Assembly (NCBI GenBank): GCA_964244895.1
Contig: CAXTKV010000002.1
Span: 1 to 63,476 of the forward strand
Reading direction: 5' to 3'
Source of the DNA: an uncultured Deinococcales bacterium
GTDB lineage: Bacteria; Deinococcota; Deinococci; Deinococcales; JAAFIG01
Length of the DNA: 63,476 nucleotides
A program made the translations under genes and the position numbers. The notes beneath the pieces were generated by a model. That model did not search any database and was not told the DNA's origin. It saw only the letters and a program-made list of their open reading frames with translations. This document shows, piece after piece, positions 33,398 through 33,699 of the stretch; position 1 is the first letter of the stretch, and the number at the start of each line of letters is the position of its first letter.

Positions 33398-33526
33398 CTA
33401 TTTTGATTGCTCGAGAAAAAGGACTCCAACCCAAAGTAACAAAAGGAGGGTTGTGGCAATAGAAAATAATATTGTTACAAAGAATTTCTCGAAACGGGCA
33501 TATTGAATATGATCTTTAAAAATCAT
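33398..33526 (-). CDS. Mini membrane protein 2 (42 aa), translationally coupled to mini-ORF 1
   Basis: MIFKDHIQYARFEKFFVTILFSIATTLLLLLWVGVLFLEQSK. Its ATG overlaps the TGA of the upstream mini-ORF (ATGA). It has one TM helix followed by LEQS, and local GC is ~25-40%. Confidence 0.45.
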   Translation of the reverse strand: MIFKDHIQYARFEKFFVTILFSIATTLLLLLWVGVLFLEQSK

Positions 33527-33666
33527 ACGGAAAAGTGGATCAAATCTGATTCTAGAATCATAGACTGCTCGAGAATATTTGCCATTACGAACAATAAAAA
33601 TGCTATCACCCAAGGTATATAAAACATCGTAAACATAAGCATGCCTTGGATATTTTTACTTACCAT
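33523..33666 (-). CDS. Mini membrane protein 1 (47 aa), not in the ORF track
   Basis: MVSKNIQGMLMFTMFYIPWVIAFLLFVMANILEQSMILESDLIHFSV. SD GGAGA lies 4-5 nt upstream of the ATG at 33666. It has one TM helix followed by LEQS and lies 33 nt downstream of the yeaH stop. Confidence 0.5.
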   Translation of the reverse strand: MVSKNIQGMLMFTMFYIPWVIAFLLFVMANILEQSMILESDLIHFSV

Positions 33667-33699
33667 TTAATCTCCAAAATAGCACTATACGGAATTTGT

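Follow-up and report, generated by a model that had tools for sequence, protein, structure and literature searches.

The prkA-yeaH-spoVR operon of an uncultured Deinococcales bacterium lies on the minus strand of contig CAXTKV010000002.1, whose 63,476 nt are here called the window. The argininosuccinate synthase (ArgG) encoded in the window supports the assignment: its best named matches are Deinococcales proteins, from Deinococcus roseus and Deinobacterium chartae, at 76-80% identity. An affiliation with Planctomycetota, which the distant YeaH matches and the DUF1501/DUF1800 neighbours might suggest, was rejected on this ground. All three genes are intact and follow their usual order (Table 1). 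The gap between yeaH and spoVR measures 449 nt and contains an AT-rich cassette of 324 bp (33376-33699), with a GC content of about 0.33 compared with 0.61 for the window. The only other AT-rich island in the 63 kb is found at positions 1-2585. That island carries a defence-type gene (122-2386, minus strand, GC about 0.3) for a 754-aa NACHT/STAND NTPase, whose C-terminal domain is NCH1 and whose N-terminus weakly resembles an Mrr-like nuclease, and a Uma2-like ORF at 2479-2988 adjoins it.

Table 1. Coordinates of the prkA-yeaH-spoVR region in the window, in the order of transcription
Feature	Position	Strand	Evidence or remark
prkA, 728 aa	34907..37093	-	Pfam AAA_PrkA 1.3e-88; PrkA C-terminal domain 1e-86
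REP-like compound palindrome in the prkA/yeaH gap	34850..34897		Pattern scan
yeaH/DUF444, 365 aa	33700..34797	-	Pfam DUF444 6.9e-76
Cassette leader with Shine-Dalgarno sequence GGAGA at 33675-33671	33667..33699	-	GGAG kept in the window, L007 and L020
ORF1, 47 aa; codons 1 to ~22 encode the true N-terminus and predicted TM1 of the 89-aa gene	33523..33666	-	Remainder is out-of-frame read-through from the deletion
T5 run, the frameshift site (A5 on the plus strand)	33596..33600	-	Alignments; T6 in L007, L020 and contigs X1, X2 and X17
71-aa TTG-ORF, the real frame of the gene past the T-run (basic loop and predicted TM2)	33398..33613	-	Fused 89-aa ORF in L007 and L020
ORF2, 42 aa; last part of the 71-aa frame, read from an internal Met	33398..33526	-	
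Cassette trailer, right border of the swappable segment	33376..33397	-	Breakpoints in contigs X4, X5 and X7
Degenerate REP-like palindrome, 3' arm truncated	33327..33375		Homologous element after every cargo type at the slot
Second dispersed short repeat, inserted in the REP arm	33281..33326		Sits where sister strains have a 106-110-aa three-TM gene
spoVR, 490 aa	31778..33250	-	Pfam SpoVR 2.1e-127

A sequence-only reading had described the cassette as a compositionally foreign segment inserted on the operon strand, and this description is upheld. The GC content of 33398-33699 is 0.33 against 0.61, and positions 33461-33520 hold exactly 15 G/C. The two small ORFs, ORF1 and ORF2, have the coordinates and translations given there; the GGAGA motif ends 4 nt before the ORF1 ATG, and the ORF1 TGA and ORF2 ATG do overlap as ATGA in the window. 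Hydropathy likewise predicts that small membrane protein sequence is encoded in the cassette. The same reading had noted that the cassette is without a described counterpart in PrkA/YeaH/SpoVR systems, and to our knowledge no small membrane component has been described for the YeaG/PrkA-YeaH-YcgB/SpoVR module. In the literature the module consists of three tightly co-fit genes that usually share an operon, and a small partner is not part of the description (bioRxiv 10.1101/072470).

Relatives of the locus were reached from a search with the SpoVR protein, by way of its 90% cluster and the contigs encoding the cluster members. Two sister strains, L007 and L020, whose SpoVR and YeaH proteins are 96-97% and 97-98% identical to those of the window, carry the same cassette directly after the yeaH stop codon. 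The three copies share 91-94% nucleotide identity, and a core of 103 nt is identical between the window and L007. Where the window has a run of five T (33596-33600), both sister strains have six. Six are also found in independent Logan contigs from sequencing runs X1, X2 and X17, in which an extra A stands behind position 33595. The sixth T joins the first ~22 codons of ORF1, the frame of the TTG-ORF and ORF2 into a single ORF of 89 codons, which spans 3187-3456 in L007 (GTG start) and 3134-3403 in L020 (ATG start). A GGAG motif stands 4-5 nt 5' of the start in all three copies (ATG, GTG and ATG in the window, L007 and L020 respectively). The L020 product is MLSKNVQGMLIFTMFYIPLIVTFFIVRNGKYSRAVYDSRIRFDPLFRTIFKDHIQYARFEKSFVTILFSITTAILLFLWVGVSFLKQSK. 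The 89-aa ORF was not predicted by the gene callers in either L007 or L020.

Hydropathy places two hydrophobic segments in the 89-aa protein, around residues 6-29 and 59-86, and a predicted net-positive loop of 35 residues lies between TM1 and TM2. The AlphaFold model consists of two long helices with a break at D43-P44 (pLDDT 70). Programmed -1 frameshifting at the T-run of the window was judged unlikely: A-TTT-TTA departs from the canonical X-XXY-YYZ heptamer, and transcriptional slippage would need a longer run.

This comparison does not support the proposal that the cassette encodes two paralogous, translationally coupled mini proteins. Both relatives that share it have one 89-aa ORF, from which the window differs by a 1-nt deletion in the T-run. 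The 71-aa TTG-ORF, dismissed earlier as the second peptide with an unlikely extension, is the real frame and the one under selection. When the ORF1 and ORF2 frames were followed into the relatives sharing the cassette, neither the ORF2 start nor the ORF1 stop was kept in L020, in which ATG has become ACG and TGA has become CGA. The supposed coupling site is thus ACGA in L020, and in L007 the fused ORF reads through it with an internal Met codon.

Tandem duplication had been suggested on the ground that both peptides contain LEQS. No protein similarity was found: a BLASTP comparison of ORF1 with ORF2 gave no alignment even at E<=100, and the repeat that they share at the DNA level is only 13 nt long and centres around CTCGAG. 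The window contains this hexamer 250 times, where base composition predicts about 21, a 12-fold excess, and the in-frame Leu-Glu that it encodes in both ORFs is therefore uninformative. The shared LEQS is present but not above chance, and the ORF2 copy of the motif reads LKQS in both L007 and L020. CTCGAG is 2.5 times as frequent as the next most frequent palindromic hexamer, and it is located inside genes and repeats alike (e.g. 33200, 33241, 33348, 33410 and 33568).

Several properties of the fused frame are those of a gene. In the comparison of L007 with L020, dN/dS calculated by the Nei-Gojobori method (NG86) was 0.42 for the fused frame, compared with 1.25 and 0.88 for its two alternatives. 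The variable columns of the three sequences are distributed 13/4/10 over codon positions 1/2/3. Variable columns number 4 of 93 in the loop against 24 of 177 in the TM segments. Shuffling of the 32% GC cassette produced an ORF of at least 89 codons in 77 of 5000 trials. These tests use three cassette sequences and small counts, so that each alone is weak (p about 0.015-0.1), and all agree. Taken on the open frame, the frame-specific purifying selection and the ribosome-binding site, the 89-aa frame looks like a protein-coding gene.

Conservation does not drop outside the ORF, in the leader and trailer, so that the low divergence of the cassette may reflect recent spread and not selection. From end to end the cassette shows 6-9% divergence between strains, compared with 23-28% for the neighbouring REP-like element and a dS of 0.38-0.47 for yeaH. 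The disparity between the cassette and its flanks is best explained if the cassette spread between strains later than the flanks diverged. Constraint at the protein level appears to be visible on top of this recent spread, judging by the stronger conservation of the loop relative to the TM segments.

The equal conservation of leader, trailer and ORF, together with the identical 103-nt core of the window and L007, would also suit a non-coding stretch with incidental ORFs, such as an AT-rich regulatory spacer or internal spoVR promoter, a structured RNA or a mobile-element scar. AT-rich DNA often bears promoters, and the 89-aa protein is without homologue in the databases searched. Against this, the cassette has no Rfam match at E<=1, and RNAalifold found compensatory changes in 0 of 84 pairs with a positive covariation term (three sequences, low power). 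One promoter-like site was found where 0.8 were expected, no terminator lies in the cassette, and spoVR stands directly downstream also in strains with other cargo or none. The frame-specific substitutions and the length of the ORF (p about 0.015) favour coding, and a non-coding stretch is regarded as highly improbable. The spacer downstream of the cassette shows no unusual folding.

The same substitutions bear on whether ORF1 and ORF2 of the window could be two genuine, separately functional, coupled one-helix peptides, either as a working split variant or as an ancestral pair that was fused in the relatives. In the loop, where ORF1 overlaps the fused frame, four of the five substitutions are synonymous in the fused frame; in the ORF1 frame they are non-synonymous or destroy the stop, and synonymy in the overlap is confined to the fused reading. 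The fused ORF is moreover intact in two of the three lineages, ORF2 start and ORF1 stop vary as described, and the two peptides are not paralogous. What speaks for two peptides is that both window ORFs begin with ATG, that ORF1 has a good Shine-Dalgarno sequence, that ATGA permits termination-reinitiation and that each ORF retains a predicted TM helix; nor do three taxa formally prove which way the indel went. On balance a functional pair is considered very unlikely.

With these three taxa and no outgroup, the indel was polarised by parsimony and by the integrity of the ORF. The synonymous distances of yeaH are roughly star-like, with a dS of 0.47 between L007 and L020 and of 0.38-0.39 between the window and either. 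T6 is the parsimonious ancestor because L007 and L020, the most distant pair, both have it. By hand count, the window branch carries nine non-synonymous changes and one synonymous change, an excess that also counts against two functional peptides, whereas the two intact lineages together carry about 10-11 and 5-6 respectively. The ratio of 9:1 is consistent with relaxed constraint after a real frameshift, although the difference is not significant.

That excess would be expected after real inactivation, and it speaks against T5 being an assembly or consensus error in an organism that has an intact 89-aa gene. An error is conceivable in that only one base of a homopolymer differs and the window is a whole metagenome-assembled contig. 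No sequencing run with the exact sequence of the window was found, nor any RNA or ribosome-profiling run. However, the long flanking genes are intact, so that the assembly is not indel-ridden, and a run of 5-6 nt is short for systematic homopolymer error. An error at this position is judged unlikely. Most likely, from the sequence comparisons, the window copy is inactivated and decaying, or yields at best two separate one-helix fragments.

Homologues of the 89-aa protein were sought widely. An exhaustive phmmer search of 1.84 billion representative proteins returned the window's own ORF1 (residues 1-26) as the sole match, and a word-indexed search of 5.8 billion clusters gave none. Exact 35-mers and peptide patterns found neither the cassette nor the protein in JGI metagenome contigs. 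Searches of IMG/VR and tblastn searches of INPHARED phages and PLSDB plasmids were also negative for the protein. Sequence profiles of Pfam, PADLOC, PHROGs, NCBIfam and PDB gave nothing below E=0.08, with none better than E=0.35 in PHROGs. Foldseek comparison of the model with PDB returned generic helical hairpins, the best at E=3.2.

A holin-like or toxin-like function had been among the earlier suggestions. The protein does resemble class II holins, pinholins and small hydrophobic toxins in its length of 89 aa, its two hydrophobic helices and its AT-rich, foreign composition. In contrast to class II holins and pinholins, its loop is long (35 aa) and basic and does not form a tight turn, and its 5-residue C-terminal tail is not charged. 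No endolysin or other lysis gene is found in the neighbourhood, and there was no significant match in PHROGs, IMG/VR or INPHARED, so that the holin-like assignment is not sustained.

The cassette is one of several alternative occupants of the same position. The left edge of this variable slot is the yeaH stop codon, at which sequences of the different cargo types diverge exactly. Among strains with 96-97% SpoVR identity, the 89-aa gene occupies the slot in the window, L007 and L020, and a soluble AT-rich ORFan of 206/234 aa (GC 0.35-0.36) occupies it in L018, L021, L022 and L025. A 94-aa ORFan (GC 0.41) is present in L024 and a 166-aa DinB_2 protein is encoded in L023. A DinB_2 gene of 146 aa fills the slot in L010-13 (86% SpoVR identity). 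The slot is empty, with yeaH abutting spoVR, at 69-73% SpoVR identity (L014-17) and in distant phyla. The cassette is absent from L001-L006, and yeaH adjoins spoVR in baseline relatives with 51-54% YeaH identity. In contigs of runs X4, X5 and X7, the segment from 33371/33376 to 33696/33702 is replaced or skipped.

The ORFan cargo is located at 2362-2982 in L018, 2276-2980 in L021 and 2207-2911 in L025 (206/234 aa), and at 298-582 in L024 (94 aa). Neither the 206/234-aa nor the 94-aa ORFans matched Pfam, PADLOC, PHROGs or NCBIfam.

Recruitment of the small gene by the PrkA module, as the sequence-only reading had proposed, fits this distribution poorly. A constant place between yeaH and spoVR was looked for across relatives, and the cassette was found in 3 of about 12 close loci; equally close strains (L018, L021-L025) and L010-13 have unrelated genes there, and more distant relatives have none. 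The small gene thus differs from the members of the YeaG/PrkA-YeaH-YcgB/SpoVR module in being absent from most relatives and in showing no co-variation with it. Judged by sequence and distribution, the cassette would not be a component of the module. A dedicated role as PrkA/YeaH/SpoVR adaptor is unlikely because the slot occupants are mutually unrelated and most relatives lack the gene.

Two further variable genes were observed in the operon. A protein of 106-110 aa with about three TM segments is encoded after the slot cargo, directly upstream of spoVR, in sister strains except the window and L020 (L007 3573-3893, L018 3073-3393, L021 3073-3393, L023 3061-3393, L024 758-1090 and L025 3005-3325). 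This gene is GC-normal and without family match, and unlike the cargo adjoining yeaH it is conserved across strains (78-97% nucleotide identity). The gap between prkA and yeaH is a second variable slot of the operon: it holds a Uma2 gene (177-179 aa) in L007 (1521-2054), L018 (618-1151), L021 (616-1149), L023 (759-1298) and L025 (547-1080), and none in the window, L020 or L010.

Every cargo type ends in a homologous palindromic element, AACACCGTCCCACAC...ATTTCTCGAG...AAAATTTGCGTCCTGGACGGTGTTCTCGAG. The element belongs to a genome-wide REP-like family, which the window contains at about 25 intergenic loci, among them 14530-14587, 21287-21344, 48877-48899, 54881-54938 and the copy in the prkA/yeaH gap. 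Two forms of it occur, a simple one, GAACACCGTCC-W-GGACGGTGTTC, and a compound one that makes a long hairpin with an AT-rich loop of 10-20 nt. Copies are often flanked by CTCGAG and stand just after stop codons. In L020 there is a single REP, which shares its 3' flank with the second REP of other strains. This looks like what would be expected of a REP-REP deletion or of the state before insertion.

In the window, the 3' arm of the REP is interrupted by a second dispersed repeat. The repeat is 46-57 nt long (33281-33337 at its widest in the window), and its summed contig depth is 100-150 times the genome depth in six metagenome runs of relatives (within X1-X7). It is present once in the window, at 442-501 in L025 and as two tandem copies at 615-704 in L023. 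It might carry an outward promoter, since TTACAA-N16-TAAGAAT lies 30-60 nt upstream of spoVR. A terminal inverted repeat of 7 bp near the cassette ends (CAAATTC...GAATTTG) was set aside as insignificant in AT-rich DNA, and the repeat scan found no inverted pair.

Taken together, the cassette is probably a frameshifted copy of a strain-specific passenger gene for an 89-aa two-helix membrane protein, residing in a hypervariable slot and forming no part of the PrkA system. It would have been acquired horizontally and is restricted to few strains, in a slot that extends from the yeaH stop codon to the REP-like palindrome upstream of spoVR. In its intact form, as in the two sister strains, it would be one gene with a GGAG ribosome-binding site that encodes a helical hairpin, with TM1 at about residues 6-27, a net-positive 35-residue loop that is presumably cytoplasmic and TM2 at about residues 59-86. 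Loss of one nucleotide (T6 to T5) in the window would shift the frame after codon ~22, leaving ORF1 as TM1 with an out-of-frame tail; the second half could then be read only from an internal ATG, which gives ORF2. Annotation should not list the mini-ORFs as a new pair of small proteins belonging to the PrkA system; they are most likely a frameshifted copy of one orphan gene.

The passenger gene would be expressed as a hitch-hiker on the stress- or starvation-induced prkA-yeaH-spoVR transcript. Read-through from the operon promoter is suggested by its co-orientation, its own Shine-Dalgarno sequence and the absence of a promoter or terminator signal in the cassette. Exchange of slot cargo probably proceeds by recombination through the conserved flanks and the REP elements.

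Such a slot shares features with several known systems. As in accessory-ORFan hotspots, a single position with conserved flanks is occupied by different, unrelated genes of foreign composition (GC 0.33-0.41 against 0.61); the strains concerned are about 90% identical at the nucleotide level, and more distant relatives have an empty site. The difference is that the site lies inside a conserved three-gene operon, where all cargo is co-oriented, apparently promoterless and followed by one shared type of REP-like palindrome. The loci read showed no integrase or transposase. The right border of the slot belongs, as with proteobacterial REP/BIME elements and REPINs (with RAYT), to a dense family of intergenic palindromes spread over the genome, GAACACCGTCCWGGACGGTGTTC together with the compound long hairpin. 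However, the present lineage belongs to the Deinococcales, the elements are tied to the CTCGAG excess, and their part in cargo exchange is conjectural.

The slots can also be viewed as a REP-delimited, integrase-less, integron-like system, in which promoterless co-oriented ORFans are swapped at the REP-like palindrome and the 89-aa protein is one functional payload. The cargo would then comprise the 89-aa hairpin, the 94-aa and 206/234-aa proteins, the 106-aa TM protein, DinB_2 and Uma2. Integron cassettes and CALIN arrays likewise consist of small promoterless co-oriented ORFans that vary between strains, each followed by an imperfect palindrome, and are expressed from an upstream promoter, as is presumed here. 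In contrast to those of integrons, the palindrome is a genome-wide REP found in most intergenic gaps; by eye it does not follow the attC R''/L''-L'/R' consensus (RYYYAAC...GTTRRRY), and no intI occurs in the loci read. A system of this kind is quite unlikely. If it were real, strain-variable cargo would gain the starvation- or stress-timed expression of the operon.

With a passenger gene as the preferred reading, a conserved stress operon of obscure mechanism has in one lineage probably become a hotspot that gathers unrelated passengers at each intergenic junction, bounded by REP-like palindromes. The 89-aa protein would be a clean case of a lineage-restricted small membrane protein with a signal of selection and no homologue in about 1.8 billion sequences. 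Were the induction conditions of the operon known, its passengers would become candidates for strain-specific functions in starvation or stress, and the locus may serve as a compact natural case for the study of REP-associated gene gain and loss.
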